DNA of 64,000 nt, from positions 10,342 to 74,341 of the forward strand of contig CAWAKX010000015.1 of the NCBI GenBank assembly GCA_963782705.1. The letters run 5' to 3'. Source of the stretch: an uncultured Actinomycetes bacterium. GTDB taxonomy: Bacteria > Actinomycetota > Acidimicrobiia > IMCC26256 > DASPTH01. Shown here in pieces: positions 850 through 20,999 of this stretch (the stretch's first letter is position 1; the number at the start of each line of letters is the position of its first letter). Position numbers and translations under genes: made by a program. Below the pieces are notes generated by a model, which saw nothing but the letters and a program-made list of their open reading frames with translations, was not told where the DNA came from and did no database searches.

Positions 850-2012
850 TCAGGCCGCGGACGGCGGGCGTCGTCGCTTCCGCTCCCGTTGTCGGGCTTC
901 GTCGGGCCTGGTGCGCCGGAGTACGAGTCCGTCGGGTTGGTTCGGGTTGCCGTCGAGGACGTACTCCCCATGGGGGATCAACAGCGCGTGGTGCGCGGGA
1001 CAGACCGCGGCGAGGTTCGCGATGTCGTCGGTCGCCGCCCCAGCTCGACGGGAGGAGGTGGTGGACCTGGAGTCCGAGTCGTCGTCGGCATCCCGGCCAG
1101 CGGCAGTGTCCGTCTCGTCGGATGACTGACGCTGCGGCGTTTGTCGGACACGAACTTGCGGACCGGACCGTCGGCGACGGGCATCGCCGTGCTCGTCGAC
1201 CGCGCGCAGCTGCACGTTCACCTCGGCACGCCAGCGCGTCGACCCATTCGTCGGGCAGCGGCCATCCCAGCACAGGGTGGCGGGTCCGGTCGAGGGGCAC
1301 GTCGACCACGACCGTCGGCCGCGCGGCCATCGTCGGGCCCTGCGCGCGGTCCTGGACAGCGCTCCCATCGGCTGCGGTCTCGCGCCGACACAAGCTGATG
1401 AGCGTGTCGGCGTGGCGGTGTTCGAGCGACGCCCAGCGTTCACCCTTCGCGGGGCGCATGCGTTCGGCGACCTGGTCGAAGAACGCCTCCACCTCCGCAC
1501 CACCGTGCTCGAGCGGCAGTTCGAACCGGCCGTGGAGGAAGCCGTGGTCGTCACGCCATTTCCGCAACGACCGTCGCTCCCGGCGTCGCACGATCTCCTC
1601 ACGCGCCATCGCGCCGCTGCTCACGCGCCATGCGCTGCAGCGCCATCGGCGACGCCGTCACGCGCCCGCTCGGCGACCTCCGCGTCGGTGTCCTCGTCGG
1701 CCAGCTCCGCCGCGGGCGCCAACTGCTCCGGCCGACAACTCGGCCGTCGAGCGCCGCGTCCGCCAGACGCGGCAGCGACTCCAACTTCCGCGCCGTCTCC
1801 ACCTTCCGCCGCGCCGTCGCATCGCGACACGCCGTCGACGCGCGGCCTGATCCGGCCGCAACGCCCGGCGCTCGTCGAGCACCCGCGTCATCGCCAGACG
1901 TCACGCGCCTCGCGGCGGCGGATCTCCCGGATCTCCGCGTCACGCGCCGCGGCGGAGACGCTCCGTCTCCCAGCAGCCGCAACTCGTCCAACAGATCCCG
2001 GAACTCGCTCAC
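850..2012 (-). CDS. DUF222 (13E12-repeat family) protein with C-terminal HNH endonuclease; several frameshifts
   Basis: Pieces in several frames: TARKLESLPRLADAALDG, RSLRKWRDDHGFLHGRFELP, RRDGHCRWPGC..QVHHLLPSSWGG / TDDIANLAAVCPAHH. Confidence 0.8.
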
Positions 2013-2018
2013 CCCACG

Positions 2019-2040
2019 ATCAAATCAGGGGGGTGTGACA
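2019..2040 (-). promoter_or_regulatory. Putative RecA-NDp/PafBC-type DNA-damage promoter, leaderless
   Basis: - strand TGTCAC-N10-TTTGAT ending 7 nt before the GTG start; resembles TGTCRG-N10-TAnnnT. Confidence 0.45.
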
Positions 2041-2096
2041 CTTATCGACCGATCTGGGCCTCCACGGCCGAGGAAATCTTGGGCTTGCACTCCGAC

Positions 2097-2120
2097 TGCA
2101 TCGCGATATATCGTGATGCA
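2097..2120. promoter_or_regulatory. 24-bp palindromic operator, probably PadR autoregulation
   Basis: TGCATCGCGATATATCGTGATGCA, one mismatched pair, ~95 bp upstream of the PadR gene. Confidence 0.6.
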
Positions 2121-2216
2121 ACGAAGACATGACGAGCGGGTCAGGCCGTCACCCATCCCGGCTCCCCCCGGGGATGGGACCGGCGACCCGCCACCACGAC
2201 AAGGAGACCCATCCCG

Positions 2217-2870
2217 ATGCACCCCCACGACCACTTCCACGACCACCCGCACGACCACGACCACGAGTACGACCAGCCCGAGGCCTCCCTCACCGATCCC
2301 GCCGGCACCGGCCGTCGCGGGCGCCGCGGTCCGCGCCGTTGGCAGGGCCCGCCCGAGGGGCCCTGGGGCCCCGGCTTCGGACGCCGCTTCCGCGGCGGTT
2401 CCCGGGGCCGGGCCCGCAAGGGCGACGTGCGCGCCGCGGCGCTCGCGCTGCTCGCCGAGCGGCCGATGCACGGCTACGAGATGATCCAGCAGATCGAGGA
2501 GCGCACGTCGGGCGCGTGGCGCCCGAGCCCCGGCGCGGTCTACCCCGCGCTCGCGCTGCTCGAGGACCAGGGCCTGGTGCGCGCCACCGAGGACGGCGGC
2601 AAGAAGCGCTTCGCCCTCACCGACGAAGGCGCGGAAGCGGCCGCCGAGCTCGGCGACCGCAAGCCGTGGGACGAGGTCACCGAAGGCCTCGACCCCGCGC
2701 AGTTCCGCATGCGTGACGCGATCAAGCCGATCGCGCTCGCCGCGCACCAGGTGATGGAGGCGGGCACCCCGGCGCAGCAGGAAGCGGCGATCGCGGTGCT
2801 CACCGAGGCCCGCCGGAAGCTCTACGCCATCCTCGCCGAGGACCCGGCCGGCGATCCGTCCGACGCCTGA
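2217..2870 (+). CDS. PadR family transcriptional regulator with His-rich N-terminus
   Basis: RARKGDVRAAALALLAERPMHGYEMIQQIEERTSGAWRPSPGAVYPAL. Confidence 0.92.
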   Translation: MHPHDHFHDHPHDHDHEYDQPEASLTDPAGTGRRGRRGPRRWQGPPEGPWGPGFGRRFRGGSRGRARKGDVRAAALALLAERPMHGYEMIQQIEERTSGAWRPSPGAVYPALALLEDQGLVRATEDGGKKRFALTDEGAEAAAELGDRKPWDEVTEGLDPAQFRMRDAIKPIALAAHQVMEAGTPAQQEAAIAVLTEARRKLYAILAEDPAGDPSDA

Positions 2871-2909
2871 CCGCACCCGCCGCGCCACCGCGCCCCCGTC
2901 GACCCCGCG

Positions 2910-3569
2910 TCAGAACAGACGCAGGTCGACGGGGGCGCCGGCGCGCAGCTCCTCGAGGTCGATCTCCACGCAGGCGATGCCGCGACTCTCGGCGAACACC
3001 CGCGCCTGCGGCTTGATCCGCGTGGCCACGAACATGCCGCGCGTCGGCCGCAGCGCGGGATCGAGGTCGAGACGCTCCTGGTAGCGCAGCAGCTGCTCCA
3101 CGCCGGCGATCTCACCGACACGCTTCACCTCCACCACCACCGCGCGGTCGTCGACGTCGCGGCACAGCAGGTCGACGGGCCCGATGTCGGTGGGGTACTC
3201 CCGGCGCACCAGGCGCAGCTCCTCGCCGAGCGCGGCCACCCGCTTGGCGAGGAGCTCCTGGAGCTCGGCCTCCACGCCGTCCTTGGCCAGGCCCGGGTCG
3301 TCGCCGAGCTCGAACGCGTAGTCGTGCAGCACCTCGTGCAGCTCGATGGTGAGCGTCTCGCCGCCGGGATTGGTGGCGACGAGCCGGCCCTCCTCCTCGC
3401 GCACCGTGCACGGCGGGCTCATCCAGTTGAGGGGCTTGTAGGCCTTGGTGTCGGCATGCACCGCGATCGACCCGTCGGCCTTCAGCAGCACGAGACGGTT
3501 GGCCTCGGGCAGCCGGGCGCCGAGGCGACCCTGGTACTCCACGGAACATCGGGCGACGAGCACGCGCAC
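2910..3569 (-). CDS. nucS: Mismatch-specific endonuclease NucS/EndoMS
   Basis: RVLVARCSVEYQGRL, KADGSIAVHAD..YKPLNWMSPPC, REYPTDIGPVDLL, VEVKR, GVEQLLRY. Confidence 0.95.
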   Translation of the reverse strand: MRVLVARCSVEYQGRLGARLPEANRLVLLKADGSIAVHADTKAYKPLNWMSPPCTVREEEGRLVATNPGGETLTIELHEVLHDYAFELGDDPGLAKDGVEAELQELLAKRVAALGEELRLVRREYPTDIGPVDLLCRDVDDRAVVVEVKRVGEIAGVEQLLRYQERLDLDPALRPTRGMFVATRIKPQARVFAESRGIACVEIDLEELRAGAPVDLRLF

Positions 3570-3653
3570 CGACGCGTTGTAGCACAGGTGCACGCGCGGG
3601 CGAGCGGGTCGGCGTACCATGCCGCGGTTCCGCAGCGACAGGGAGACGTCACC

Positions 3654-4200
3654 ATGCCGATCTTGGCCACCTACCGCAACGGGGTCTACGACTTCTTTCT
3701 CCTGGTGCACATCATGTGCGCCATCATCGGGTTCGGCGCCGTGTACCTCAACGCGCTCTACGGCCAGGAGATCCGCAAGCGCCCGGGGCCCGAGGGACTC
3801 GCGGTGTTCGAGGCCAACTTCCGGATCTCCAAGATCGCGGAGTACTTCATCTACGCGGTCTTCGTCTTCGGCTTCGTCGTCCTCGCGCTGGCGAAGGTCG
3901 GCGACACCAATGTGTACAAGTTCTCGCAGACCTGGGTGTGGCTGTCCGTCGTCCTCTACGTCGTCGGCATCGGCATCTCCCACGGCGTGCTCATCCCGTC
4001 GGTGAAGAAGATGGGCAACCTGATGCGCGAGATGATCGCGGCGGGTCCGCCCACCGGTGGGCCGCCGCCGCAGGTCACGCAGCTCCAGGCGCTGGGCAAG
4101 AAGGTGGGGGCGGCCGGCGCCACCCTCAACGTGCTCCTCGTCGTCATCGTGGGGCTGATGATCTGGAAGCCGGGAGCCCCTGGCTTCTCGGCCCCTTTCG
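3654..4200 (+). CDS. DUF2269-like 4-TM membrane protein (3' end uncertain)
   Basis: LLVHIMCAIIGFGAV...WVWLSVVLY...VGLMIWKPG; ORF reads on to 4433, probably through a frameshift. Confidence 0.65.
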
Positions 4201-4224
4201 GTCGTCGGCGCAGACGTCTCTACG

Positions 4225-4524
4225 ATGACCGCCGTGCACCCCGTGCTCGGCAGCTTCGTCGACGACGTCCTCCGCGAGCTCATCGCCGCGCTCGGCGCCG
4301 CGCTGTTCTTCGCCAACCTCTGGGCGCTGATCAAGCGGGGCCGCGACGAGGACCGGATCGCGGCGCGCACCGTCGAGCGATCGCGCCCCGGAAGTCCGGT
4401 ACGCAGCGTCGCGAACCCGTCGCCCCGACGTGAGCTCGCGCAGGCGCCGCTGATCCGCACCGTGCTCTACATGGTGATCGGGTTCGTGGTGATGGTCGCG
4501 GGTCTCGCCGCCCGCTTCGGCTGA
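4225..4524 (+). CDS. Small 2-TM hypothetical membrane protein
   Basis: Two hydrophobic segments, GC3-rich codons. Confidence 0.6.
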   Translation: MTAVHPVLGSFVDDVLRELIAALGAALFFANLWALIKRGRDEDRIAARTVERSRPGSPVRSVANPSPRRELAQAPLIRTVLYMVIGFVVMVAGLAARFG

Positions 4525-4548
4525 GCGAACTCGAGTGGACGGCCCCCG

Positions 4549-4856
4549 GTGAACGGCCTCTACGACGAGCCGGACCCCGCGTCACCCGGACCACTCGCAG
4601 GGCTGCGCGTCGTCGACCTCACCCGAGCCGCGCGGGCCCCACCTGCGTGCGTCAGCTCGCCGACCTCGACGCCGACATCGCAGTGCTGCGCCCGCCGCTC
4701 ACGTTCAGCGACACACCCACGTCGGTGCGTTCCGGGTCTCCGGCCGACGGCGCCCGCACGCGTGAGGTGCTCGCGGAGCTCGGCTACGACAGAGGCGAGA
4801 TCGACGCGCTCGCAGCTGCGGGTGTGGTCCGGATGGAAGAGGAGCCGCGGCGATGA
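4549..4856 (+). pseudogene. CaiB/BaiF (family III) CoA-transferase with large internal deletion
   Basis: N-terminal PLAGLRVVDLTR...VRQLADLDADI joined directly to C-terminal PLTFSDTP...TREVLAELGYDRGEIDALAAAGVV. Confidence 0.7.
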
Positions 4857-5663
4857 CCATGCGAACCGTCGACACCGGCACGGAGCAGATGCTCGCCCAC
4901 GTGGAGGCCGGCATCGGCTGGATGACCTACAACAACCCCGCGCGTCACAACGCGATGTCGTACGACATGCAGCGCGCGGTGCCGCGCATCCTCGAGGCGT
5001 TCACCATCGATCCCGAGGTGCACGTGGTGGTGGTGCGCGGCGCCGGCGACCAGGCGTTCGTGTCGGGCGCCGACATCTCGGAGTTCGAGACCCGCCGCAC
5101 CGCGGTGGACGCGCGCGCGGAGTACGACGCCGCGCTGCACGCGTCGTGGGGTGCGTGGCGGTCGATGCTGAAGCCGGTGATCGCGATGATCCGCGGGTAC
5201 TGCATCGGCGGCGGGCTGCTCACCGCGATGAAGGCCGACATCCGCATCGCCGCCGACGACAGCCAGTTCGCGATTCCGGCGGCGCGTCTCGGCCTCGGCT
5301 ACGGGATCGACGGGGTGCGCGAGCTGCAGGCCCTCGTGGGCCCCGCGCACACGGCGGAGATGCTCTTCTCGGCGCGACGCGTCGGCGCGCACGAGGCGCA
5401 GGCGATCGGCCTCGTGAACCGCGTCGTGCGCGGCGGCCGAGCTCGAGTCGGAGGTGCGCTCGCTCGCGGCCACCATCGCCGCGAACGCGCCGCTCACGGT
5501 GAAGGCCTGCAAGGCCGCGATCCGCGAGCTGGGCAAGGACCCGGCGCAGCGCGACCTCACGCACGTGGAGGCGCTGATCGAGGCGTGCTTCCAGTCGGAG
5601 GACTACCGCGAAGGCCAGCGCGCCTTCGCCGAGAAGCGCCCGCCGCACTTCACCGGCAAGTAG
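4853..5663 (+). CDS. Enoyl-CoA hydratase/crotonase (frameshift ~5435)
   Basis: NNPARHNAMS, AFVSGADISEF, KPVIAMIRGYCIGGG, SEDYREGQRAFAEKRPPHFTGK. Confidence 0.9.
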
Positions 5664-5679
5664 GCGCCGGCGTCGGAGG

Positions 5680-5882
5680 TGCGAGGGGTCGCCGAGGGCG
5701 GAGACGGGCGGCTGGCCGGCGCGCACCACGCCGGTGAAGCCGTAGAACAACAGGAACGTGCCGCACGCGATGGCGACGAAGTTCCACACCGACGACCCGC
5801 GCTGCGCGGCGTCGATGATGTTGATCACGAGGATGAGGATCCCCGTGAGGGACGTCACGATCGCCCGGGTCTGGTTCGACAT
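5680..5882 (-). CDS. Small 2-TM hypothetical protein (3' end uncertain)
   Basis: MSNQTRAIVTSLTGILILVINII...WNFVAIACGTFLLFYGF. Confidence 0.45.
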
Positions 5883-6195
5883 GCGCTCGACGCTAGCCAC
5901 CGGGGCGGGTCCCGCCGTGCACTCGGCTCGGGTGAGGCTTCGGGGCCTGGGCTACGATCTCGCTCCCGCGCGGGTGGGGGACGGCGCGAAAGTCCGGCAG
6001 TGGTGCAGGGCAACGCTCGCAGCCTGCCGTGTTGATCCCGTCGGAACGCGGTGGACCGGATTCCGGAACGCGTTCGTGCTCCGCCGGGTCCCTCGAGGCT
6101 GCGGCGTGTCACAGCGACCCAGTGGGCATTCGGTGCTACCTGGGCGATGTACCTGCCGGGCCGAGAGCGTGGGGTCAGTCACTCCCGCACGGTCA

Positions 6196-7235
6196 TCATC
6201 GGCGTCCGTGGGCGGTCCGCGCCGGGCAGATCGCCACCGCGTACGGAACTTTGCCGACGGTGATGGGAGGCGACACCGCACCCGTCGCGGTGGTGATCAC
6301 CGACACCGTGTCACCGTCGCCGTTCGCCCCAGAGCTGGTCACGTAGGCGAGTTTCCCGTCAGGGGTGAAGGCCACCGCGTCTGGACCCTTGCCGACGGTG
6401 ATGGGGGCCGCCACCGCACCCGTCGCGGTGGTGATCACCGACACCGTGTCATCCGCGCCGTTCGGCCCCTCGTTGGTCACGTAGGCGTGTTTGCCGTCAG
6501 GGGTGATCGCCACCGCGACCGGACCCTTGCCGACGGTGATGGGGGCCGACACCGCACCCGTCGCCGTCGTGATCACCGACACCGTGCCGTCCCCGACGTT
6601 CGTCACGTAAGCGTGCTTGCCGTCAGGGGTGATCGCCACGCCGCCTGGATACTTGCCGACGGTGATGGGAGGCCGACACTCGCACCCGTCGCCGTCGTGA
6701 TCACCGACACCGTGCCGTCCACCGTCGTTGACCACGTAGGCGTGCTTCCCGTCGGGGGTGATCGCCACCTCGGCCGGCTTCTGCGCCGACGGTGATGGGA
6801 GGTGACACCGCGCCGGTCGCGGTGGTGATCACCGACACCGTGCCGTCACCGGAGTTGGTCACGTAGGCGTGCTTGCCGTCGGGGGTGATCTTCACACTGG
6901 CCGGACCCTTGCCGACGGTGATGGGGGCCGACACCGCGCCGGTTGCGGTGGTGATCACCGACACCGTGCCACCGAAGACGTTGGTCACGTAGGCGTGCTT
7001 GCCGTCGGGGGTGATCGCCACCCAACCCGCACCCGGACCGTTGCCGACGGTGATGGGAGGTGACACCGCTGCCTGTGGCGGTGGTGATCACCGACACCGT
7101 GCCGTCCACGTAGTTGGTCACGTAGGCGCGGCCCGCACACCCTCCGGTCGCAGCCGCGCCGGGCGTTGCCGATGTCGCGACCAGCATCGCCGACCCGACA
7201 ACGCGACCACGACCATGGCAACGAGCTTCCGACAT
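6196..7235 (-). CDS. Secreted YVTN-family 7-bladed beta-propeller (frameshifted)
   Basis: Seven ~42-aa repeats AITPDGKHAYVTN..DGTVSVITTATGAVSAPITVGKGP; signal-peptide-like N-terminus. Confidence 0.88.
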
Positions 7236-7644
7236 CCAGCAACACCGCTCATCTGGCCGCTCCCGTGTGTTCGAACGGAAGAGGCGGAGGGCTCAAACTC
7301 GAGCAGGGTCCACGCCCAGGCGCGAACTCGCCGTCGCCCCCGAACAAGCGATCAAATTCGAACGTACACCCGATGTCCACCTGCACTGACAGGAATCCTC
7401 GGCGGATGCCAGCGGTCATCCACCGGTGTGAACGGCCAGACCGTCAGCGTTCACGCCTCGCTGGCAGGAGCGTGCGCCAGGACTGCTCCGATCGGGCGGC
7501 TTGGAGCAGCTGAGTTCGGAGACGAGAAGCGCAGCCCCGGCACGGGTTCCAGGCGTAAGCTTCGGAAGGCGGGCTCGCCACCGCTACGATCGCCCCAGGG
7601 ATGACGCCCTGTCGGGTTTCGCGCCAGGTTTCGCGCCGTCCCCC

Positions 7645-7718
7645 GTGGGTGTAGTTCAGCGGCAGAACATCAGCTTCCCAAGCTGAGAACGCGGGTTCGA
7701 TTCCCGTCACCCGCTCCA
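7645..7718 (+). tRNA. tRNA-Gly (anticodon CCC) with encoded CCA
   Basis: Cloverleaf: acceptor GTGGGTG/CACCCGC, D-arm GTTC/GAAC, anticodon arm TCAGC-TTCCCAA-GCTGA, T-loop TTCGATT, TCCA end. Confidence 0.97.
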
Positions 7719-7727
7719 TTTTTCGCG

Positions 7728-8175
7728 TGTCTGTCAGGGTTTCTGGTTGGTGTGCGTCCTGGGTCGGCCGGTCGGCTGTAGGGCTTGGTCGGATCGATGG
7801 TGAGGGCTCGGAGGAGCTCGCCGGTGGTGGCGTCGATGACGTGACGTCGAGGTCCTCGATGAGCAGGATGACGGGGGTTCGGGCGTGGGTTCGTCCGACA
7901 CGATTTTGATCATCTTGCCGTCGTGGCGGAGGGTGACCTTGCCGGCTTTGTCGATTTGTCGTGCGAACGTGAGTGGTGGTCGGTGCTGCGATCCTCGGGA
8001 GCGGCTTTGGGTCGGGCTTGGTAGGCGACTGCTGGAGTCGAGTTCCCCGCAAGCGTGGAGTGGCCCGCTGTTCGTTGTAGTGGCAGCGGAAGTCGTCGAG
8101 GAGCCTTTGGAGCTCGGTGATGTTGTGGGTGCTGCACGGGCGTTGAGCCAGCGTTTCAGGGTCTGGTGGAACTGA
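7728..8175 (-). mobile_element. IS481-family transposase C-terminal remnant
   Basis: FHQTLKRWL, TPAVAYQARPKAAP, IDKAGKVTLRHDGK, GRTHARTPVILLIEDLDV across frames; 5' part absent. Confidence 0.75.
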
Positions 8176-8188
8176 TTTGAGTGTGGTG

Positions 8189-9390
8189 TTAGTTTTTTGC
8201 TACGAGGATGAGCGGCACGGCGACGATCATGGGACTGCGAGGAAGATGAAGGCCGCGTCTGGTGACGCTGCGGTCCACAAGATGCCCGCAATGGTGGACG
8301 CCGCGAGGTTCCTGCCGGCTTGGATACCAGCGAGGAGTCCGAAGGCGGAGCCGCGTAGGTCGGTCGGCGCGAGGGCGGCGACGGCGGCGTGTTCGGCCGT
8401 TTCGGCGCAAGCGATGCCGACGCCAGCGAGCACGAAGGCGGGAGCGAGCACGATGACCTCGCTCGGACCGACGGCGAACCAGGCGTAGGCGCATGCGAAG
8501 CGAGCGGCCCCGGCGGCCATGACTCGGGTCGCGCCGCGGCGATCGGCGTGATGTCCGGCGGGGACGCTGACGAGGGTGGCGGCGAGGTTGTAGGCGACGT
8601 ACAGCACGAGGGCGAGTTGGGTGGCGCGATCAACGGTGCGGCCGGGTTCGAACAGTTCGGTTGCTCGGAGGATGAGCAGGGTGGCGGCGCAGTTGCCGAT
8701 TTCGAACGCGATGATGCCGAGCATGAGCTTGCCGAGTTGCCCTTGCATGACCGGTCGGATCCGCAGGCGGATGGGTTGGCGATGGCGCTCATGGGGCGTC
8801 GGCGGTGTGGCGAATGGCGTAGATGATCGCGAGCGGCGGCGAGCAGGCCGGGGATGACCGACAGGCCGATCGCGCCAGCGGGTGCCGACGACGCCGACGA
8901 GGACGATGGCGACCAGCGGACCAATGATGGCGCCGAGGTTGTCCATCGCACGCTCGAACCCGTACGCACTGCCGTACGCCTCGGCGGGCACCATGTCGGC
9001 GAGCAAGGCGTTGCGGGCGGGCACGCGCAGGCCACGAGCGGTCCACGCTCCGGCGCGCAGGATGGCAACCTGAGCGGTGGTGGTGGACACGCCGATGCCC
9101 GCGACAAGACGGCTGTCGTGGCGTAGCCGCCGACGGCGACCGAGCGGCGCCGATGCGGGTCATCGGCCAGCGCGCCGCCGCCCAATCGGGCGACACCAGC
9201 CAGCGCGTCGGAGACGCCTTCGATCACACCCAGCGCGGAAGCAGGAGCGGCGAACGTCGAGGTCAGCAACGACGGCAGCAGCGCCGTCGGTATCTCGTGG
9301 CCGACATCGGCGAGAAGGCTCGCCCCACCGATTCCAGCGACACCCGGACTGAACCAGGTGCGATAGGTTTCACTATCTCGGGGTTTCAGA
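8189..9390 (-). CDS. MFS transporter (frameshifted; start uncertain)
   Basis: SLLADVGHEIPTALLP, GVIEGVSDALAG, RGLRVPARNALLAD, AYGFERAMDNLGAIIGP. Confidence 0.8.
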
Positions 9391-9463
9391 CACAGCCGCT
9401 GACTATACGGAGTTGTGAAGGATTTCGATCGGGTCGAACGCCAGTACGAGGCGATCGGATGGG

Positions 9464-10384
9464 TCACACGTTGAGGTAGAGGATCATGCCGATGCCGACG
9501 ACGAGGCTGTAGATCGCGAACGGCGTGAGGGTCCTCGTCGCGAAGAAGCGGGTGAGGAATCGCACCGAGAGGTACGCCGCGATGCCGGCGCAGATGCTGC
9601 CGACGAGCACCTGGCCGCGGATGCCGTCGCCGTTGTGGCCGGCGAGGTCGGGGAGCTTGTAGACGCCCGCGGCGAGAATCACCGGTGTCGCGAGCATGAA
9701 CGACGAGCCGCGCGGCGTCTTCGTGGTCGAGCCCGCGGAGAAGGCCGGCGACCATCGTGACCCCCGAGCGGCTGATGCCCGGCGAACAGGGCGAGGATCT
9801 GCGACGAGCCGACGAAGACGCCCTCGCGTAGCTCGAGGGTGTCGAGGTCGCGTCCGACGTCGTGGCCAGGGTCGGTGTGGTGGTCGTGCTCCATCACCAA
9901 CTTGCGGACCTCGCCGCGACGGCGGAGTCGTTCCCCGGCCAGGAGGATCACTCCATTGAGGGTGAGGAAGATTGCTGCCGCGGTGGGTTTCGCGAACACG
10001 GTGCGCAGGTTGTGTTCGAACACGAGGCCGACGATGCCGACGGGGATGGTGCCGAGGATCAGCAGCCAGGCCATGCGTTGCGGTGCGGTTTCGATGCGTC
10101 GGGTCCGCAGCGTGGTGAAGAACCCGCGCACGACGTCGACCCAGTCATGCCAGAAGAAGATGATCAGCGCGATCGCCGTGGCGCAGTGCGAGACCGACGA
10201 GGAACGCGAGGTAGAAGGACTCGTCGGCTGACTGCCCGGCGACGAGCGAATGCCAGCCGAGCAATTCCGGGACCAGCACCGAGTGCCCGAGACTCGAGAT
10301 CGGGAACAGCTCCGTGATTCCCTGCAGGATCCCGATGACGATCGCCTGCAGGTAGGACAACGATGCTGTCGCGATGGTCTTCAT
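9464..10384 (-). CDS. uppP: Undecaprenyl-diphosphate phosphatase (BacA/UppP), frameshifted
   Basis: QAIVIGILQGITELFPISSLGH; PGISRSG motif recoverable across frameshift at ~9780; AARSSFMLATP. Confidence 0.88.
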
Positions 10385-10417
10385 CGCTGCGGCACCGTAC
10401 TGGAGCATGGCTGAATC

Positions 10418-10795
10418 GGTAATATTGTAGAGTAGTGTGGAGTTTGTGGTGTGGGTGTGAGTTAGTGTAGGGTGTGGTGTGTGTTGTGTGGGAGTAAGTG
10501 TTGATGGTGTGTGAAGTGGTGTGTTGTTGGAGTTTGGTGTTTTGTTGGTGAAGAGGTGGATTGATGAATAAGAAGAGATGTGAGTAAGAGTGAGTTGATG
10601 GTGATTTTGTGGTTGAGTTATAGTATGTGTTGTGTAGTAACTAGGTGAATATGGGTAAGAATGAAAGTTAGTAGAGATTGGATAGAGGATTAAGTGGTTA
10701 GTTGGGGGATGTTAGATAGATAAAGAAGTTTGTTGTGGTGCTGATGTGAAGAGAGAAGAATAGGGTGAGGGTATGAGGATTGGTAAATAAGTGAA
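10418..10795. other. C-depleted tract (2 C in 378 nt on + strand)
   Basis: Direct count: only C at 10641 and 10741. Confidence 0.95.
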
Positions 10796-11332
10796 CCGAT
10801 GGTTTCTGATAGCGACGACATAGCTATGACGTGATCGTGCTCGACATCATGTTGCAGGGTAATGGTACAAGGTGTTCAAGCAGCTACGCGACGCGGGACT
10901 GACACGATCCTGATGCTCACCGAAGGAGTGAGTACAATCATGCTGAAGCGCTCGATGCAGGAGCAATAACTTCCTCACGAAGCTGTTCTCGTTCGTAGTG
11001 CACCTGCCGATCCCGCGCTGCTCGCGATTGCAGACTCGAACATCGTCTACACAAGAGTAACTCGTGATCGATCCAGTGACACATCGTTGTAAGCAGAGCA
11101 ACACCAAGGTCGTGCTACGCTCGAGAGTTTTCAGTGTTCGATTTAATATGCGGCAGTATGAGATCGTCGCGAAGTTAGAATTTCTCGACAACGTGTGGAC
11201 TTCGCGTTCGAAGGTGATCCGAACATCGTAAGGTCTACATGCAGCAACTTCGCAAGAATTCGACGAACGTTGGACGACACTGATCGAAACAATTCTAGAG
11301 TCGGATACGGTCTCGACCCGACAGGCGGCTGA
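10700..11332 (+). pseudogene. Heavily degraded OmpR/PhoP-family response regulator
   Basis: Recoverable SYDVIVLDIML, ILMLT, AEALDAGA, FLTKLFSFVV (for KPFSF), LDNVW/FAFEGDPNIV/VYMQQLRK, IETI..GY; many indels and G->A/C->T changes. Confidence 0.75.
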
Positions 11333-11335
11333 CCT

Positions 11336-11583
11336 GTGCATCGATTAACGACGTTCGGTTCGATCGCGCTCGCCGAGTATCGTCTTCGGCGTCGCATTGA
11401 ATGGATATGATAAGAGTGTAGAATCGTAACGCTCGTAACCGACAATCTAGTCGACAATTCAGCGTAAGTTGTGATTTAGATTGGTTATTGGTTGTTAATG
11501 AGTGTTTGTGAGAGTTAATTAAATAGTATGGGAGGATTTTTATTGATGGATTTTTATTTGGTAAGGTGGATTGTAGATAAGAG
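11336..11583 (+). pseudogene. Possible 5' remnant of the cognate sensor kinase; last 120 nt contain no C
   Basis: Follows the RR stop; RLTTFGSIALA..IVFGVAL resembles a kinase TM1; remainder unreadable or missing. Confidence 0.35.
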
Positions 11584-12081
11584 CATCTTCGGTGTCTGGG
11601 TGACGAGCTGCTCGGCCAGTTGGGCAGTCGGCCACGGAGCATGCTCGCCGGTCGGCGGCGATGCGTCCGTCGGCGACGGCTCGGTCGACCTTCGCGTTCG
11701 CGTTATGCACGACCGTGTCGACAACTTGGTTGGAGGGAACACCTGCGTCGGCTGCGAGCGCGGCGATCGACCGGCCCTCGTCGACTGCTCGCCGCAGGAC
11801 GTCGGGTGCGACGCCGATCGCGGCCGCGGCCACGTCGAGTTCCATACCGGCGAGTCGCCGCAACATCTGCTGTCGCCGCGAGGGCTGTTGTTTCCACCGC
11901 GAGTCGGCGACGACGATCCCATACGACGCTGCATCGAGACGAGCAGCACGATCCGTACGACGCCCATGGCGACCAGCAAGCCGCCGATGAGCGTCTGACC
12001 GGCGGCGAGCAGGATGAGGCCGCCCACCAGACTCACACCGAAGAACAGATACCGCATCGTCCCTATCGAGTTCCGGTTCAT
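11580..12081 (-). CDS. Hypothetical: TM hairpin plus helical domain (paralog 1), frameshifted
   Basis: MRYLFFGVSLVGGLILLAAGQTLIGG + LDVAAAAIGVAPDVLRRAVDEGRSIAALAADAGV; similar to 15024-15713. Confidence 0.7.
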
Positions 12082-12145
12082 CTTATCGCCTCCGCTTCGC
12101 ATGGGCGCTGCTCGTTCGACCATCGCCCTGAACACTGTTGTCACT

Positions 12146-12190
12146 CATGACAACGTCGCCAACGTGAAGGAATCGTCATGGCGAGGTCAG
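12146..12190 (-). promoter_or_regulatory. Conserved promoter with 11-bp-spaced direct repeats (OmpR/PhoP-like box)
   Basis: 26/35 identity to 16473-16507; CGTGAAG / CGTCATG / GGTCAG at 11-bp period. Confidence 0.5.
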
Positions 12191-12419
12191 TCGCCGACCA
12201 AGCTAGGGAACGGAGCGAAACCCGAACGCGCGCACGAGCTGTCACCAGGAGTAGGCGACGCTGTTGCTCGACGACGATGAATGTGAAGCGGCGCAAGGCC
12301 TGACAACCAAAGGCAACGATTCGCACGAAAACTTGCCGTAGCGATGTTGTCGTAGCGAGAACAACTGCTGGACCTATAAGCCGAGGTTCCTGAGTGCTCG
12401 AAACGCTTACCGTTACTGT

Positions 12420-13713
12420 TTCTGAGGCGAGCACAGGCAATGACGACGAAGCCGGGGCCGAGGATTGGTTCAGCGTCGTCCGAGGCAGCCTTCCAACGTG
12501 GTGGCGTACGCCTGGCGGAAGTCGACGGTCATCGGCAGGTTGCCACGCGAGTCGAGTGTGGCAAGGCTGATGTTACCGTGAGACTCCTGACCTTCGAGCC
12601 ATGACGAAGTGTACGCTCACGGCGCCGTGGTTGTACCGCTGCAGTTTTCCTGTGCACGCAGTCGAACTCCGACAATGTCACGACGATCACATTGTCGTCG
12701 ACGCCTGCGGCGGTGATCGAGGTGAAGAAGCGGTCGAGTGCTTCATCGAGATCCACGTGCAGTGCCTGTTGACGCGCGGTTTGACCCTGGTGCGTGTCGT
12801 AGTCACCAACGTTGGTCACATAGACGATCTTGGGCGGATCCTTCGCGGCGACGAGCTGGGCCGCGAGTTCGAGACTCGCGACCGGGGTGCCGTTGGTGTA
12901 CGCGGCTGCAGTCGCGATGGTGATTGTCAGCGCTCGTGGGACCCGTCGAAAGAATGCGGGTGAGATCGACGCGGGCGTCGCTGGTGAGGCCGACGGCGCG
13001 TTGCACCTGACCGAGCAGCGTCGAGCGGTATCGAGGCGCACCGCGGCGCGAACTTGGCCCAGGTCTCCGGCAAGGTGGTGGAGTCCGTGATCCACACCGG
13101 CGCATTCGGTTGGAGGCCCGAAGCGTCGCTGATACTCGTGGCGAACGAGCTTTCTCCCACCAACGCGGGCGAAGGCCCCGGGCCGATGACGATCCCGGCG
13201 AGCGGATCGGAGAATCCGACGGTGTGGTCGAGATAGCGACCGAGCCATCCGGAGGCGCTCGCCTGGCCGGGAGTGCCTGACCACCAGGTCGCGAGGGACG
13301 CGAAGTGTGAGAGATCGTTGTTCGGGTAGCCGATTCCCTCGATGATCGCGACCTGCCCGGCGCGGTATCGGTCGGCCAGCTTCGCGAGGTTGGGGTGCAG
13401 GCCGACGGAACCGTCGAGGTCGATCGGAGTGTCGATCGCGAGCGTGGGCCGAAGTCGGCGATAGTTCGGATCGCTGTACGGGATGACGGTACCGATGCCA
13501 TCGTTGCCGCCGGCGAGCTCGACGAAGACCACCGTGCGATCCTTCGTGCCCGACTGCTTGACCGGGTTGCTCGCGGCGCCCGCAGCGGTCGGACGCGCCC
13601 ACGTGTTGAGCGCGTAGCTGCCCGCGACGAGCGTGCCGGCCGAAACCCACTCCGGCCAGGAACCGGCGCCGGCTGAGTTCGCGGTCGATGTCCAAGGTGC
13701 TTCCGTCGCTCAT
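12420..13713 (-). CDS. DUF1501 family protein with Tat signal; frameshifted, 3' end degraded
   Basis: LSRRRFL; VELAGGNDG..TVIPY, GLHPNL, GIGYPNNDLSHF, YDTHQGQ, TLSEF, VDFRQAYAT. Confidence 0.88.
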
Positions 13714-13715
13714 CG

Positions 13716-15027
13716 TCACACCACCGCGTACTCGGGCGACGCCACCAACAGGGCCAGTCGTCGGGTGTGATCTCGTTCCCGGTTCAAGACATCGCGGCTG
13801 CGGTCGCTCACGTCGACGAGCGCATAGCGATCGAGAAGATCGTCGAGCTTGGTCGGGATTGCCGGCGCCGTCGGGTACACCGACAGCAGGTCGAAAGCAT
13901 GGGTCAGCTGATGCGGTCCGACGAGTCCGAGGCCTTTCGGATAGCCGGCGACGTTGGGCGGCGCGAACGGTATGTAGCCGAGCGTATGGAGCGCGTCGGC
14001 AACCCCAGTTGCCTGACCGTGGAGAACCCGTCGGCCCAGGCGGCCGATGTCGAGACTGCTCGGCGGAATGGCCTGCACGATGCCCACGAGTTTCTCGATC
14101 GGCGAACGCGTCTTCCGCGCGATCGCCTGGTCGGAGGTGAAGGCAGGCTCCGCGACAATGGCCTCGACGAGCGGCATCACCTCGTAGTTCCCGTCGCGGA
14201 ACTTCTTGCCGAGTCGTGTTGCGGCCTTGTCCGACGGCGCGACGCCGACGAGTTCCGTGTAGAGCTTCCCCGCGATGCGCTTCGCCGTGGCTTCATGATT
14301 CAGCAGCACGTCGAGCGCGCCGTCGAGATCAAGGTTGGCCGTCGTGCCGAGCAAAGTCTTCATGCCGTTGTCGTGACGCGCCGGAAGAAATACCGCGTTC
14401 CACGGCGGAGCGAGCGCGTTGAGCGCCGCAAGTTGAGGCAGGCCGAGGATGTTCACCGCCCAACCGGTGAACGCACGCGACGCCTCGATCACGTCTTCCT
14501 CGGTGTAGTTCCCACGCCCGAGCGTGAACAGCTCCATCACTTCGCGTCCGAAGTTTTCGTTCCTGCGCACGCACGGTGTTGCTGACGCCATCGAGGTACC
14601 AGAGCATCGCGGGATCCTTCGAGACTGCGTGCAGCAGTTCGGCGAAGTTCCCGGTTGCGTGGTTCCGAAGCAGGAGGTGCTGCTGCCACATCATGTACGG
14701 AATGCGCACCTTCGCCACGCTCGACGCGAAATGGTCGTGCCAGAACCACACGAGCCGTTCTTCGATGAGTCGCGGGCTCGACTGCATCTGTTGCAGCCAG
14801 AACGTGACGGGCTGCTCCAGGGCGCCGACCGCTTGAGCCGTGTTGTAGTCCGGCGGAGGCGGAATCGCGGGCGGCGCCGCCGCCGGAGCGCTCAGGTCGA
14901 GTGCCCGAGCGATCGCAGCGTCCGAGTCCTTGAGCGTCGCCACCAAGTCGGGTTGGGGCCCCATCGAGAGTCGCCGCAACACGTGGGCGACGGCCACCCG
15001 TTGCTTCGTGCTCGTGTGCTTGCTCAT
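13716..15027 (-). CDS. DUF1800 family protein (frameshift ~14575)
   Basis: ERLVWFWHDHFASS, DPAMLWYLDG, NENFGREVMELFTLG..YTEEDV, PPNVAGYP. Confidence 0.9.
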
Positions 15028-15713
15028 GGCTCCAAGGATGCCGCGCCGACATCAGGGAAATGTGAGGACACGGTGTTCATGACGCCATCACACCGTCTCC
15101 GACGAACCTGAGAGCGCTTCACCGACTGCCCTTCATCATTCCTGCGCGGTCGACCCGCGGCTCTGGCGTTCGCGAGCATTCCCGGTGTGCCGAGGACGAA
15201 CCGCTCGGCCCAGCTCGGGAGCCGGCGTCGCAGGACCTTTGCGCGGTGGGCGGGGAGGGTTCCGGCGGCGACCGCACGGTCGACTCTCGCGGTCGCGTCC
15301 TCGAAGACGGCGGTGATGACCTGACGGGAGGAAACGGCGGCGTCGGCGGCTACTGCCGAGATGGTTCGGCCGTCGTCGACCGCGCGGCGGATCGCGTCGG
15401 GCGTGATGCCGATCGTGGTGGCCGCGACCTCGAGCTCCTGGCGCGCGAGACGTTGGAGCAGCTCATCGCGGCGACCCCCGACACGCCCTCCGCCGGCGGT
15501 CAGGCCCGTGGCCCCGCGCGACGGCGGAACGGCCGTGCCGCGGTCACCGGCGACGCGTCGCTCCATCGTGAACAACATCACGATGCGCACCCCGGCCATC
15601 ACGACCATGATCCCGCCGATCAGGACCTGCCCGACCATCAGGAGGAACGTCCCGGCAACCAGGCCGAACCCAGCGACCATCCAGCGCAACCTCCGCACAC
15701 TGTCCCAGCTCAT
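15024..15713 (-). CDS. Hypothetical: TM hairpin plus helical domain (paralog 2)
   Basis: LEVAATTIGITPDAIRRAVDDGRTISAVAADAAV..RVDRAVAAG; stop overlaps the DUF1800 ATG (ATGA). Confidence 0.7.
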   Translation of the reverse strand: MSWDSVRRLRWMVAGFGLVAGTFLLMVGQVLIGGIMVVMAGVRIVMLFTMERRVAGDRGTAVPPSRGATGLTAGGGRVGGRRDELLQRLARQELEVAATTIGITPDAIRRAVDDGRTISAVAADAAVSSRQVITAVFEDATARVDRAVAAGTLPAHRAKVLRRRLPSWAERFVLGTPGMLANARAAGRPRRNDEGQSVKRSQVRRRRCDGVMNTVSSHFPDVGAASLEP

Positions 15714-15790
15714 CTCGGTCCCTCCGTCACTTCGTGGCACCTGCTCGGTGTCGGCTCCTGTGCTCAGTGTCGGCGGGGCAGTCGAAGCAA

Positions 15791-15820
15791 CTGTCAGGGT
15801 TGTGTGAAGTACCTGTGAGC
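15791..15820 (-). promoter_or_regulatory. PhoP/OmpR-like triple direct repeat
   Basis: - strand TCACAGG-N4-TCACACA-N4-TGACAGT. Confidence 0.5.
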
Positions 15821-15855
15821 TACGACCCCGTGTTGTGAGCTACGACCCCGTGTTG
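15814..15855. repeat. Perfect 20-bp tandem duplication
   Basis: TGTGAGCTACGACCCCGTGT x2. Confidence 0.95.
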
Positions 15856-15891
15856 CGCGGGCCGGCTCCGTCGTGACCGTCCCGGGCGCGA

Positions 15892-15925
15892 CGGTGCCCG
15901 CCGGACGAATGCTCGGCGGGCACCG
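15892..15925 (-). terminator. GC-rich hairpin, likely terminator of 15963-16409
   Basis: 12-bp perfect stem CGGTGCCCGCCG/CGGCGGGCACCG. Confidence 0.6.
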
Positions 15926-15962
15926 GGTCAACCGTCGAGACGGCTGAAGGTTGGTGGTGGTT

Positions 15963-16409
15963 TCAGGCGCTGGCGTGCTGACGGAACTGGTGGTTCATCA
16001 GCGTGTCGATGCGGCTGGAGAGCTTGCTCGTGACCGCGTCGGCCTGTGCCTGGGAGAACCGGCCGCTGGAGACGAGCTGGTCGAGCTTGGTGTTGGCGCC
16101 CTTGATCAACGCGTCGACGACGGTCTGGGGGTCCTTGCCGAGCGAGGTCGCGTACTGGCTGACGGTCTGGCCGGCGCCCAACGCGGCACGCAGGTCCTGG
16201 CGGCTGACGCCGAGGGTGTCGGCGACGACCTTCATCGCGCCGCGGCGGAAGTCGGCCCTGATACGCGGGTGGCCGGCGGCGGTCTGGGTCGACGGCGTGG
16301 CGTTGGTGCTGGTGGAGCTGTCGGCGGCGAACGCGGCGCCGGCGGTGCCGACGGTGAGTGCACCTGCGAGGGCGATACCAGCGGTGAGCTTCTTGATCTT
16401 CGAGTCCAT
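15963..16409 (-). CDS. Secreted hypothetical protein with the same helical domain (paralog 3)
   Basis: Signal peptide MDSKIKKLTAGIALAGALTVGTAGAAFA; VVADTLGVSRQDLRAALGAGQTVSQYATSLG..VVDALI..LDQLVSSG. Confidence 0.8.
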   Translation of the reverse strand: MDSKIKKLTAGIALAGALTVGTAGAAFAADSSTSTNATPSTQTAAGHPRIRADFRRGAMKVVADTLGVSRQDLRAALGAGQTVSQYATSLGKDPQTVVDALIKGANTKLDQLVSSGRFSQAQADAVTSKLSSRIDTLMNHQFRQHASA

Positions 16410-16472
16410 GATCGTGTCCTTCTGTGGGGTGTGGTCTGGGGGTTCGACCCAGCCCCGCTGGGCTGATGTCAC

Positions 16473-16507
16473 CATGACAACGCCGGGAACGTCATGGGAA
16501 CGTGAAG
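16473..16507 (-). promoter_or_regulatory. Conserved promoter / direct-repeat box shared with 12146
   Basis: CATGACAACG...CGTCATG-N4-CGTGAAG. Confidence 0.5.
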
Positions 16508-16705
16508 CCCGCAACAGCGGAAGACCAAGCGGGCCAGGAATCAGGCGCGCCTTCCAGGCTCGTGGGGCGACGTCGCGCAGGGCCCACGCGCGCGTTGTAC
16601 CGTTCGCCGGCAGCGCGACGACCGGCGAAGTGGGTGGCCAGATGGGACTCCTGAGCGTGGAGAAAGCGTGCACTCGGCCCGGTCACGAGACCGCGGGTGC
16701 GCACG

Positions 16706-19236
16706 ATGACGACTCCTGAACCGTCCGACGCGGCGAATGCGACCCGGACTTCGGGCACGTTCGCGGACTCCGGTGGTGCCACGCGGGACGGTGCGGACGA
16801 TCTCGGCGCCGAAGTCGACGCGGCGGTGACGACCGCAACGTTGGACGGTTCACCGCTCGAGCCGTCGTGGCGAAGACGTATGTTCCGCCCCGCGGCCGAA
16901 GGCGCGTTGAGGCGCCGCACCCGTGACTGGTTCGGGCTGCTGGTCGGTCTCACGCTCCTGGTCCTCGCGTCGCTGCATCACGGTGATGTGTCGCACAGCG
17001 AACGCGCTGTCTTCGACGTGTTCAATTCGCTGCCGGCCAGCGGCGCGCCCATCTTCCGCGGCTCTGTATCGGATTGGTTCGCTGTGGGCGATCGGTTTGG
17101 TCGTAGTCGCCGCGTTGGTGGCCGGGCGTCGCCGTCTCGCTCGCGATCTTGTTGTCGCGGCGCTGCTCGCATGGACCGCGGCGCGGGTGCTGAGCGAGAT
17201 CGTCGATGCGCACGAAGACATCACGCACACATTGCGCATCACCGTCTTCGGGAGCGCACCGTCGACCTTCCCGTCTGCACGGGTGGCGATCGTCGTCGCG
17301 GTGATCGGGGCGGCGGCGCCGTATGTGACGCGCCCGGCTCGGGCGCTCGGGTGGACGCTGGTCGTGCTGCTGGGGACTTCCGCGCTGTATCTCGGCACCG
17401 CGTTTCCCAACGACCTCTTCGCCGGCGTGGTGCTGGGCGTCACGGTGGGATGCTTCGTGCATCTCCTCTTTGGCTCGCCGGGGACACGGCCGACCATCGC
17501 CCAGATCACCGAGGCACTCGAGGATCTCGGGCTCACCGTTCGTGACGTCCGGTTCGCGTCCAATCAGCCCGCGTCGTCGACGCTCGTCCTCGCCGAAGAC
17601 GATCAGGGACCCCTTCGCATCCGTGTCGTCGGGCGCGACGACGCACACCAACAACTGCTCGTCAAACTCTGGTTGACCATCATCAACAAGCGATCCGCGC
17701 CACGTTTCGCATTGACTCGCGTGCAGCAGGTGGAACACGAGGCGTATCTACTGCTGGTCGCCGCGCAGAACGGAGTGCATGTTCCGCCCGTCGTGGTCGC
17801 AGGTCGCGCGGGTCCGAAAGCGGCGCTGCTCGTGCAGCGCCCCATCGAGGGAGCTGCGCTCGGAGACCTGCACCGCGACGAAGTCTCCGATGCCCTGTTG
17901 GGCCGCCTGTGGGCTGACGTCGCCGCGCTCGGGACGTGCCGAATCGCGCACGGAGATCTCGACGCCGATCATGTCATCGTCCGCGATGACCAGTCCTGGC
18001 TGGTGGGTTTCGATCTCGCCGAAGTCACCGGAGACCCGGCCAGCCTCGCCTCGAACGTGGCGGAACTGCTCGCGTCCACCGCGGCGCTCATCGGCGACGA
18101 GCACGCAGTCAGAGCCGCGGCTCGCGGGAGTCGGGCCCGACGCAGTCGAGCGGTCCCTGCCCCTGCTGCAACCCGCCGCGTTGTCGTCGACAGTCAGAAG
18201 ACTCAGTGGTGAAGGCCGAGGCGCGTTCGCCGATCGGCTGGAGCGACTGCGCGCGGTCGCCGCCTCGGCGCTGGGCGTCGACCCGCCCGAGCTGGTCCAG
18301 GTGCGGCGCATCACGCTCGCCGGCGCAGTGATGACGGTCGGTGCGCTCGTCGCAGTCGGGGCACTGCTCCTCGATGTCGGCAACCCCGCTGACGTGGCCG
18401 ACACGATGCGCAGCGCGAGTTGGATCTGGATCGCGCTCGCGATCATCATCTCGTTCGCATCCAACATCGCGTACGCGATCGCGTTACAAGGCACCGTGCG
18501 GGTGCCATTACCACTCGTGCCCACCACCGAGTTGCAACTGGGAATGTCGTTCTCGAATCTGGCGATCCCCGGCATCGGCGGTCAAGGAATGCAGGTGCAG
18601 ATTTCTGCAACGATTGGGCGTCGACCTCTCGTCCGCGGTCGCCGCCGGCGGCTTGTTGAGCACCTTCGGTGCCCTCGTCGCCGCACTCGGCTGCTTCCTG
18701 GTTCGCGTTGCTCGTCGCACCAGCGCAAAGTGGACCTCTCACTCATCCCCACGAACGGACTGCTGCTCACCCTCCTCATCGTCGCGGCACTCGTCGTTCT
18801 CGTGAGTGGCATCATCGGCTTCGTCCCGAAGCTGCGAGGGCGGGTACTTCCTCCGTTGTCACGCGCCACGACGGCGATCACCGATGCGCTGCGATCGCCG
18901 CGTCACGTCACCTTGTTGATCGGCGGCAACGTCGTGGCGACCGTGATGTCCACCTGGTGCCTCCAGGCCTGTCTCGTCGGATTCGGCGGCCACGTGTCCT
19001 TCTGGGCGCTGCTCGCCACCAACGTCGGCGTCGTGACCATCGCCTCCATCGTGCCGATCCCAGGCGGAGGAGCCGCCGTCGGTACCGTCGGGCTGTCTGC
19101 AGTGCTCGTGTCATTCGGCGTGCCCAAAGAGATCGCCATCGCCGCGGTCCTCGCCAACCAACTCGCCTTCAATTACCTCCCGGCGATCCCCGGCTGGTTC
19201 GCCACCCGCGACCTCGTCCGGCGCGACTACCTCTGA
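16706..19236 (+). CDS. Large membrane protein: PAP2-like TM region, kinase-like domain and lysylphosphatidylglycerol-synthase/flippase-like TM domain; frameshifted
   Basis: FPSARVA, QVEHEAYLLL, RIAHGDLDADHV, VPIPGGGAAV, YLPAIPGWFATRDL. Confidence 0.75.
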
Positions 19237-19365
19237 CCACAGCTTCTGGAGGGCCTCGCTGCGCAACTTCGGCCTTGTGAACGGAACAGCACTCACCGAC
19301 GAGCCGCGGGCGTCGACCGATCACCGGCGATGCGGCCGGCCATCGAACCCGGTCACCCCCAACAG

Positions 19366-19400
19366 GCTGAGGACGCGGGTTCGATGCCCGTCACCCGTTC
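19366..19400 (+). repeat. Degenerate copy of tRNA-Gly 3' half (putative attR)
   Basis: GCTGAGGACGCGGGTTCGATGCCCGTCACCCGTTC vs 7682-7716, 3 mismatches. Confidence 0.8.
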
Positions 19401-19426
19401 GTCCCACTTCCAGCCGGCGCGCCGCG

Positions 19427-20938: not shown

Positions 20939-20999
20939 GCGGTCGATTCTGACCAGCCCGGGCCGTCACCGCAAAACGAGCAACCGCCTCGTGGAGGCC

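Follow-up and report, generated by a model that had tools for sequence, protein, structure and literature searches.

Does a bacterial chromosome carry two blocks from which cytosine has been erased on one strand, or is the assembled sequence at fault there? The question is raised by a locus near the left end of the window, by which we mean the whole 64,000-nt stretch that was analysed (G000:C15:10342-74341); positions are those of the window throughout. The assembly comprises 3.30 Mb in 38 contigs, with 71% G+C, 75% completeness and 2.95% contamination, and it is a public species-representative genome. Genuine blocks would be the first natural case of complete, strand-specific erasure of cytosine within a bacterial chromosome, and would represent a footprint of DNA-deaminase warfare or defence.

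Recounting confirmed the base counts that had drawn attention to the locus. On the + strand, tract 1 (10418-10795) contains 2 C in 378 nt (A 97, C 2, G 150, T 129), at positions 10641 and 10741, and the 120 nt of tract 2 (11464-11583) are free of it (A 32, C 0, G 36, T 52). The 27-nt C-free patch reported at 8173-8199 is also present, and we find a further patch of 29 nt at 11396-11424. Cytosine makes up 35.7% of the whole assembly (3,302,954 bases), and the four longest C-free runs in it (223, 120, 99 and 54 nt) are all at the tract locus, while the longest anywhere else in the 3.3 Mb is 51 nt; the longest G-free run in the assembly is 38 nt. When 131,908 windows of 150 nt were scored, those with 12 C or fewer formed two stretches only, both at the tract locus, and no window had 12 G or fewer, the minimum being 27. 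Under an independent-base model, the number of C-free runs expected per genome is 1e-17 for runs of at least 120 nt and 2e-37 for runs of at least 223 nt. The two long C-free tracts are beyond chance. The 27- and 29-nt patches alone are not significant, because 7.8 runs of at least 27 nt are expected per genome under the same model. Scanning the assembly for further C- or G-free tracts gave none comparable to this locus in 3.3 Mb, and none of the other short C- or G-free runs in the genome (27-51 nt) resembles the tracts.

The original prediction held that G is retained in the tracts. In terms of composition this is correct, as G accounts for 39.7% of tract 1 and 30.0% of tract 2, but the homology that retention would imply is lost, even when C and T are treated as one letter (see below). 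The A share of tract 1 is 25.7%, compared to 14.3% for the genome. A search for tandem or dispersed repeats within the tracts returned weak TG-rich periodicities only (scores 30-46), and no coding frames were found in them.

The disturbed region begins on the left with a tRNA-Gly gene (CCC; 7645-7718, + strand), identified using ARAGORN. Next to it lies the frameshifted 3' fragment of a transposase gene (7739-8171, − strand), cut at ~8171 and sharing 70% DNA identity with a copy in another genome (G033:C7), in which the full open frame (GKVERFQQTLRRWL...) is readable. We take the gene to be IS481-like, a name that derives from the motif ERFHQTLKRWL rather than from scoring against a family library. 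The 27-nt C-free patch sits at the break between this fragment and the end of a broken MFS transporter gene (8227-9159, − strand; Pfam MFS_1, 6.6e-19, over part of the frame only), and in its first ~17 nt, compared by eye with the G033 copy, C is replaced by T (4) or G (2-3). With the tRNA gene and the transposase fragment adjoining, the tRNA-integrated island that had been proposed is plausible; no integrase or attachment repeats were found for it.

A second copy of uppP/BacA follows (9464-10385, − strand), which the Pfam BacA model matches in 3-4 pieces. It is broken by three 1-nt insertions (~9705, 9777 and 10190), seen against 5/5 relatives compared, but is otherwise clean in substitutions, and it ends 33 nt left of tract 1; an intact BacA gene is found on contig C11. 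Tract 1 is followed by the remnant of an OmpR-type response-regulator gene (10793-11332, + strand), which covers profile positions 98 to the stop codon (nhmmer E 1.6e-94) and is read by tblastn in three frames (1/3/2). The alignment with the relatives continues beyond the regulator stop into a possible 5' remnant of the partner histidine-kinase gene (11336-11463, + strand), where similarity is weak (z 2.3). The final 27 nt of gene X (11554-12100, − strand) lie under the right end of tract 2; this gene, for a small membrane protein, has no Pfam match and is 79% identical to copies in 4 relatives. Its stop codon is at the expected place within tract 2 (tta here, tca in the relatives), and the 24 nt between that stop and the tract edge are garbled, with C-to-T, C-to-A and G-to-A changes as well as shifts. 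Further right is a DUF1501/DUF1800 gene pair (12447-15027, − strand), 83% identical to that of G011, with 16 gaps, 12 of which are not a multiple of three. Three relatives (G007, G013 and G015) have intact uppP, regulator and kinase genes in the same order and orientation as here, so that tract 1 fills the divergent intergenic region and the place where the regulator gene should begin (its first ~97 nt). The wider region is rearranged relative to the relatives, and two genomes of the same genus were found to be without the locus.

The tracts had been interpreted as the product of a processive, context-independent C-to-T deamination of one strand. There is an obvious likeness to bisulfite or enzymatic conversion, in that the tract strand is nearly without C, contains G and reads like converted GC-rich DNA. 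Such conversion keeps A, G and T in place, so a homologue should be found once C and T are treated as one letter. We therefore compared 10620-10795 with the first 130 nt of the regulator gene in nine relatives using Smith-Waterman alignment, and obtained a mean z of 0.77 in three-letter (C=T) space and 1.48 with four letters. The same test gave z values of 15.6 (C=T) and 34.7 (four letters) for the adjacent control segment 10796-10925, which indicates that the three-letter test had power. When tract 2 was compared with the sequence that follows the regulator stop, z was −0.15, although this is a weak test, since the unconverted control beside it reached only 2.3. An alignment to the nine-relative profile begins at 10793 (profile position 98), where C returns, three bases before the end of tract 1. 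As plain C-to-T change spares ~70% of positions, the profile alignment should have continued into tract 1. A three-letter blastn in which the two tracts were searched against their own genome (both strands) and all fetched loci found nothing that stood above shuffled sequence: the best non-self scores were 63.5 bits (tract 1) and 42.8 bits (tract 2), compared to values of up to 59.9 and 49.1 bits, respectively, in 20 shuffles each. The original prediction had itself named the failure to recover a homologue in three-letter alignment as evidence against it, and this is largely what we see.

A second property of conversion is independent of any homologue. Exchange of C for T leaves the pyrimidine share of a strand unchanged. 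In tract 1 this share is 34.7%, whereas among 69,966 genome windows of the same length (378 nt, both strands) 0 are that low (mean 0.500, sd 0.030, minimum 0.357), and in the segment 10561-10795 it falls to 31.9% (0 of 113,572 genome windows that low). The first 143 nt of tract 1, at 39.2%, and tract 2, at 43.3% (17,721 of 219,820 windows), are compatible with conversion on this count. The deficit means that purines as well as T have taken the place of C, or that purines have been inserted. Plain conversion also predicts no indels, whereas there are 24-28 gaps between the tracts and the right end of tract 2 can be aligned only with shifts. Taken with the lost homology, these results do not support a processive deamination. 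Bisulfite-type conversion differs in a further respect, as the tracts here are joined to normal sequence on both sides.

One block of tract 1 does match the relatives. In an ungapped comparison in syntenic register, anchored at 10796, seven 15-nt blocks of tract 1 were examined. The block at 10721-10735 (AAGAAG...) has a C=T identity of 0.69, matched by 0 of 340 other registers, and this is the block that had been recognised as the beginning of the regulator; the other six give z values from −1.3 to 1.1, so the match stands for one block in seven and does not extend to the rest. The in-register block suggests that the tract is probably a scrambled native copy in place and not foreign DNA. Judged from the alignments, the tracts are most likely scrambled copies of native sequence in place, neither foreign nor clean conversions. 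A sequence-context preference (TC or WRC) has nothing to be read from here, as every C of the tracts is gone and there is no unconverted ancestor for comparison. In three-letter space neither tract has a second copy of the kind that fungal repeat-induced point mutation (RIP) would involve, and the transposase fragment has no second copy in its own genome.

The 668 nt between the tracts (10796-11463) consist of ~25% of each base. At columns that are invariant in nine relatives, this stretch is changed or lost at 10/61 A, 21/78 C, 31/88 G and 7/67 T, giving 69/294 overall (23.5%). The corresponding figure for uppP is 15/478 (3.1%), including 3 C-to-T and 3 G-to-A changes. Within the stretch, G-to-A changes (16/88) exceed C-to-T changes (6/78). 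The regulator remnant shows 24-28 gaps per ~535 aligned nt against each of 7 relatives, while the relatives have a mean of 0.64 gaps among themselves over the same stretch (36 pairs). Mismatch rates by codon position are ~0.22/0.14/0.42 for the remnant and 0.144/0.087/0.382 for the relatives, which looks like normal selection-shaped divergence overlaid by ~4-8% of position-blind changes. In 10793-11332, 33 C-type and 41 G-type changes fall into 41 runs, compared to 37.5 +/- 4.2 expected; they are interleaved, without strand coordination. A check of homopolymers in the regulator remnant showed that 19 of 40 deleted positions are in runs, compared to 35% of all positions. Indels that are about as frequent as substitutions, on all four bases and in no strand order, are not the work of a deaminase and instead resemble read noise.

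The flanking genes carry a milder form of the same disturbance. The uppP, gene X, DUF1501 and DUF1800 genes are 79-83% identical to those of relatives, with mismatches mostly at third codon positions, and position-3 mismatches are 2-4 times as frequent as those at position 2, a pattern of purifying selection. Their gaps are mostly frame-breaking (3 in uppP, 3-8 in gene X and 16 in DUF1501/1800), and breaks so young and so numerous look like errors, to judge from the alignments. In gene X there are 1-nt deletions of C at 11616 and 11648, together with a + strand cluster of C-to-T changes at 11704-11727: the invariant columns 11704, 11706, 11716 and 11727 have T in place of C with the other bases kept, and contigs from a soil run read C at these four positions and at 11731. 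Over the whole gene, C-to-T changes outnumber G-to-A changes by 11 to 4. Long open frames rich in GC3 occupy 0.528 of the genome and 0.352 of contig C15, but their share drops to 0.08 in its 10-20 kb bin and to 0.02 in its 20-30 kb bin (together window ~0-19.6 kb). Elsewhere in the window, Pfam domains are also split, with ECH_1 broken at ~5420 and a lone P450 C-terminal piece at 42497-42880.

The assembly as a whole bears the marks of long reads. Overlaps between contig ends are inexact and gapped (99.0%, 96.5%, 98.0% and 92.7% over 312, 1206, 3000 and 2338 nt, respectively), and two homologous contig pairs (C29/C30 and C18/C19) are 93-97% identical with 136 gaps, 106 of them of 1 nt. A single rRNA operon lies inside a 498-kb contig, and rpoB is intact as one open frame of 1165 aa. 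These features indicate that long reads from a mixed population were assembled with an appreciable indel error rate, which is worst around the locus, the platform being deduced from them. Local, indel-rich noise that is blind to codon position, in company with long-read error signatures, is what an unpolished long-read consensus would be expected to give.

We infer from the assembled sequence, rather than from source reads, that the tracts are quite probably an artefact of sequencing or of assembly, in a stretch left unpolished at the quality of raw reads. The original prediction had allowed that an artefact was at least as likely as a biological event, and the lost homology, the composition, the indels and the noise of the assembly all favour this fallback. 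A consensus of ~1.2 kb (10418-11583), no better than raw reads or worse, would have escaped polishing in a noisy, probably metagenomic, long-read assembly; it lies centrally in ~20 kb of the contig over which the consensus is poor. The actual DNA most likely has the uppP/intergenic/response-regulator/kinase arrangement that is ordinary in the relatives. Where the sequence is worst, in the two tracts, the base caller or the consensus step may have scrambled the sequence without ever emitting C, which would have been replaced mostly by T but also by A and G, while between the tracts errors would have struck all four bases along with many indels. The source would then be the reads and not the cells, with presumably low coverage at the locus. 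As far as alignment to relatives can show it, the noise is local, unselected and rich in indels, and it follows a gradient, from ~0.3-1% indels in the flanks, through ~5% gaps and ~6% extra mismatches, to unrecognisable sequence. Errors of long reads are described as clustering into low-quality read segments (PMC6833143), and the local, indel-rich and unselected noise seen here, the inexact overlaps and the many 1-nt gaps are all similar to such nanopore-type segments. The similarity is incomplete in that one base is here wholly absent while G is kept at 30-46%, a comparison made with published descriptions and for a platform that is deduced. We know of no long-read error mode that removes exactly one base over 378 nt with G kept at 40%, and our literature search did not yield a description of one.

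Three further observations sit poorly with an artefact. The edges of the tracts are sharp, with uppP clean in substitutions 33 nt to the left; this type of tract is unique in 3.3 Mb, where a generic error mode might recur; and two small places (10721-10735 and 11704-11727) resemble true C-to-T change with the other bases kept. The gene X cluster, the sharp edges and the uniqueness keep alive the possibility of a damaged molecule and, less likely, that of hypermutation. A single molecule may have had the cytosines of one strand densely damaged or modified (uracil or another lesion) and have been read natively and amplification-free; at very low coverage its altered C, called as T or another base, and the degraded calls around each lesion would have passed into the consensus, and nothing heritable would be involved. 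We regard such an origin as unlikely, although it would account both for the C-specific loss and for the scrambling of other bases, as well as for the C-only changes with homology kept at 11704-11727 and 10721-10735, and although the assembly has long-read signatures. Between the tracts, the excess of G-to-A over C-to-T changes and the indels on all bases show noise that is not confined to C; no other such tract exists in the genome; and both the platform and the support by a single read are themselves deductions. Modification-linked nanopore errors are known from methylation motifs scattered over a genome and are not known to be total, whereas here a single locus is affected, at every C within a block of 378 nt. 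The likeness, which lies in errors on one strand and at a particular base, is to the strand-specific nanopore errors that, in the account given in PMC11610603, arise from DNA modification.

Heritable hypermutation, the biological reading in the original prediction, is more doubtful again. Here a context-independent ssDNA cytosine deaminase, for example the SsdA-like toxin of a competitor, would have attacked the exposed + strand of a dead two-component locus, and error-prone repair of uracil would have added indels and substitutions. The SsdA type is, to our knowledge, the only bacterial enzyme class capable of ssDNA cytosine deamination with weak context dependence. This toxin (BaDTF2) is described in PMC12494967 as a bacterial ssDNA cytosine deaminase without strong context preference, so that the kind of enzyme which the original prediction had overlooked does exist and could in principle give context-free C-to-T change. 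C is totally missing from two tracts of one and the same strand, C-to-T changes are in excess in gene X and accompany the in-register block at 10721-10735, and the locus lies among broken genes, beside a tRNA gene and a transposase fragment, all of which would suit hypermutation. Yet SsdA makes C-to-U changes only, which leaves the lost homology, the purine excess and the indels unaccounted for: the three-letter homology test fails where it has power, the pyrimidine deficit is impossible from C-to-T change, the indel load equals the substitution load, and the middle stretch has no strand coordination. The broken neighbouring genes, moreover, keep their pattern of selection. A search of the 75%-complete genome for YwqJ, DddA-like and DYW deaminases (PF14431, PF14428 and PF14432) gave no match, the latter two models having matched nothing in control genomes either and so lacking a positive control; the two genes of the CDA fold in the genome are both housekeeping genes. 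A deaminase toxin would in any case come from another cell. The dCTP deaminase gene at 59766-61916, which carries an intein, was considered as the culprit and set aside, as its product acts on nucleotides.

Clustered, same-strand, C-directed changes near rearrangement junctions also recall the kataegis produced by APOBEC/AID enzymes. As PMC3628087 describes it, kataegis scatters substitutions over kilobases at intervals of one to several hundred nt, leaving the remaining sequence intact and falling short of 100% conversion. At our locus we see total conversion, scrambling and indels, and in place of strand-coordinated runs with other bases intact there are 41 runs, with A and T columns changed too. 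That the tracts are real and heritable, a deaminase having removed every + strand C and error-prone repair having scrambled the neighbours, so that a 'kataegis to completion' became fixed in a natural population, strikes us as very improbable. Least credible is the idea that foreign or non-templated filler with a naturally C-free strand was laid down at rearrangement junctions and replaced the 5' end of the regulator gene and the body of the kinase gene. Homology does stop exactly at the tract edges, all three patches are where homology blocks meet, and the region is rearranged relative to the relatives, but the spacing is conserved, with the AAGAAG block in syntenic register and the stop codon of gene X 27 nt from the boundary, as expected. 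The tracts, devoid of repeats and coding frames, have no match in plasmids, phages, their own genome, the fetched loci (relatives and metagenome contigs) or, for two exact 30-mers, in 185,579 species genomes, and we know of no non-templated addition of hundreds of nt to a chromosome.

The searches behind that last statement differ in reach. The exact 30-mers, one from each tract, had no match in the 185,579 species genomes, a set that possibly left out the record of this genome itself, and in blastn with the low-complexity filter on, no plasmid was matched by tract 1 and no phage by the whole 1166 nt; nor was the transposase fragment matched in plasmids. The one public run that was found, from a soil metagenome (X1), shared 5% of sampled words and, at 80% likeness, had zero depth over 10342-11009; elsewhere it gave short pieces of relatives only, and it is uninformative on the tracts. 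In a metagenome scan with a piece of uppP, the best match reached 66% amino-acid identity.

An artefact in the consensus, which we favour, has consequences beyond the two tracts. The tracts themselves are most likely uninformative about the organism, and a striking compositional anomaly in a public species-representative genome most likely amounts to a bad consensus. False frameshifts are numerous in the ~20 kb around the locus, where neither the calling of genes, nor pseudogene numbers, nor completeness estimates should be relied on. Two tests that need no reads, three-letter homology with a neighbouring positive control and the conservation of the pyrimidine share, separate 'converted' from 'scrambled' sequence and can be reused on findings of this kind.

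Some resemblances noted along the way were dropped. An Rfam match to SECIS_2 at 11625-11682 scored 21.8 bits (E 0.29), below the gathering score of 70, and was taken as chance. By eye, a synthetic G-less cassette misfits the presence of a regulator remnant between two tracts, and the likeness to sequencing adapter or primer remnants is partial; the likeness to yeast-like TG1-3 telomere repeats was likewise by eye only. The G-free runs elsewhere in the genome are ordinary coding sequence, and a 32-nt run at 63879-63910 of the window lies within a coding region.

Close to the two nearly cytosine-free tracts, the only site that looks like clean, partial C-to-T conversion lies in gene X, the small membrane-protein gene on the minus strand that extends rightwards from the right end of the second tract. 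Here we see a small group of plus-strand C-to-T changes (window 11704–11727) at columns that are invariant in four relatives, and the G, A and T residues beside these changes are unaltered. Contigs from the public soil-metagenome run carry a C at window 11704, 11706, 11716, 11727 and 11731.

Gene X also marks one end of a 4.6 kb segment, running from the tRNA-Gly to the gene X start, that inverted repeats flank at window 7605–7643 and 12206–12232. Complementarity is 81% for the 21-nt repeat and 88% for the 17-nt one. In two genomes of relatives, G009 and G007, gene X adjoins a homologue of window 15888–16543 with the opposite relative orientation, and the region has therefore been rearranged.

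Broken genes cluster at window about 1–19,600, corresponding to positions 10,000–30,000 of the contig (C15). In the two 10-kb bins of this interval, the coverage by long GC3-rich open frames is 0.08 and 0.02, compared to 0.528 genome-wide, and the Pfam domains ECH_1 (about 5420), BacA and DUF1800 are split between frames. Gene calls and pseudogene counts for this part of the window are not to be relied on.

Elsewhere in the assembly, C29/C30 and C18/C19 are homologous contig pairs with 93–97% identity over 2–17 kb, in which the most common substitution class is C<->G and gaps are mostly of 1 nt. These differences suggest two strains within one bin together with consensus indel errors. Similar consensus indels may occur in at least one comparison genome (64% complete, six contigs). 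The gene X copy of that relative, in the comparison locus L064 (G015:C1) at 2222–3027, is likewise broken across two frames.

Beyond the tract locus, the longest C-free run is a very G-rich stretch of 51 nt (G000:C32:123888–123938), which has a chance expectation of about 2e-4, follows a terminator-like hairpin and, unlike the tracts, does not look scrambled. Several stretches with a G+C content below 52%, close to a contig end (G000:C28:94301–96725), look like foreign lower-GC DNA rather than noise. Finally, the window carries a dCTP deaminase gene at 59766–61916, a single open frame of 717 aa interrupted by an intein that gives matches to LAGLIDADG homing endonucleases.
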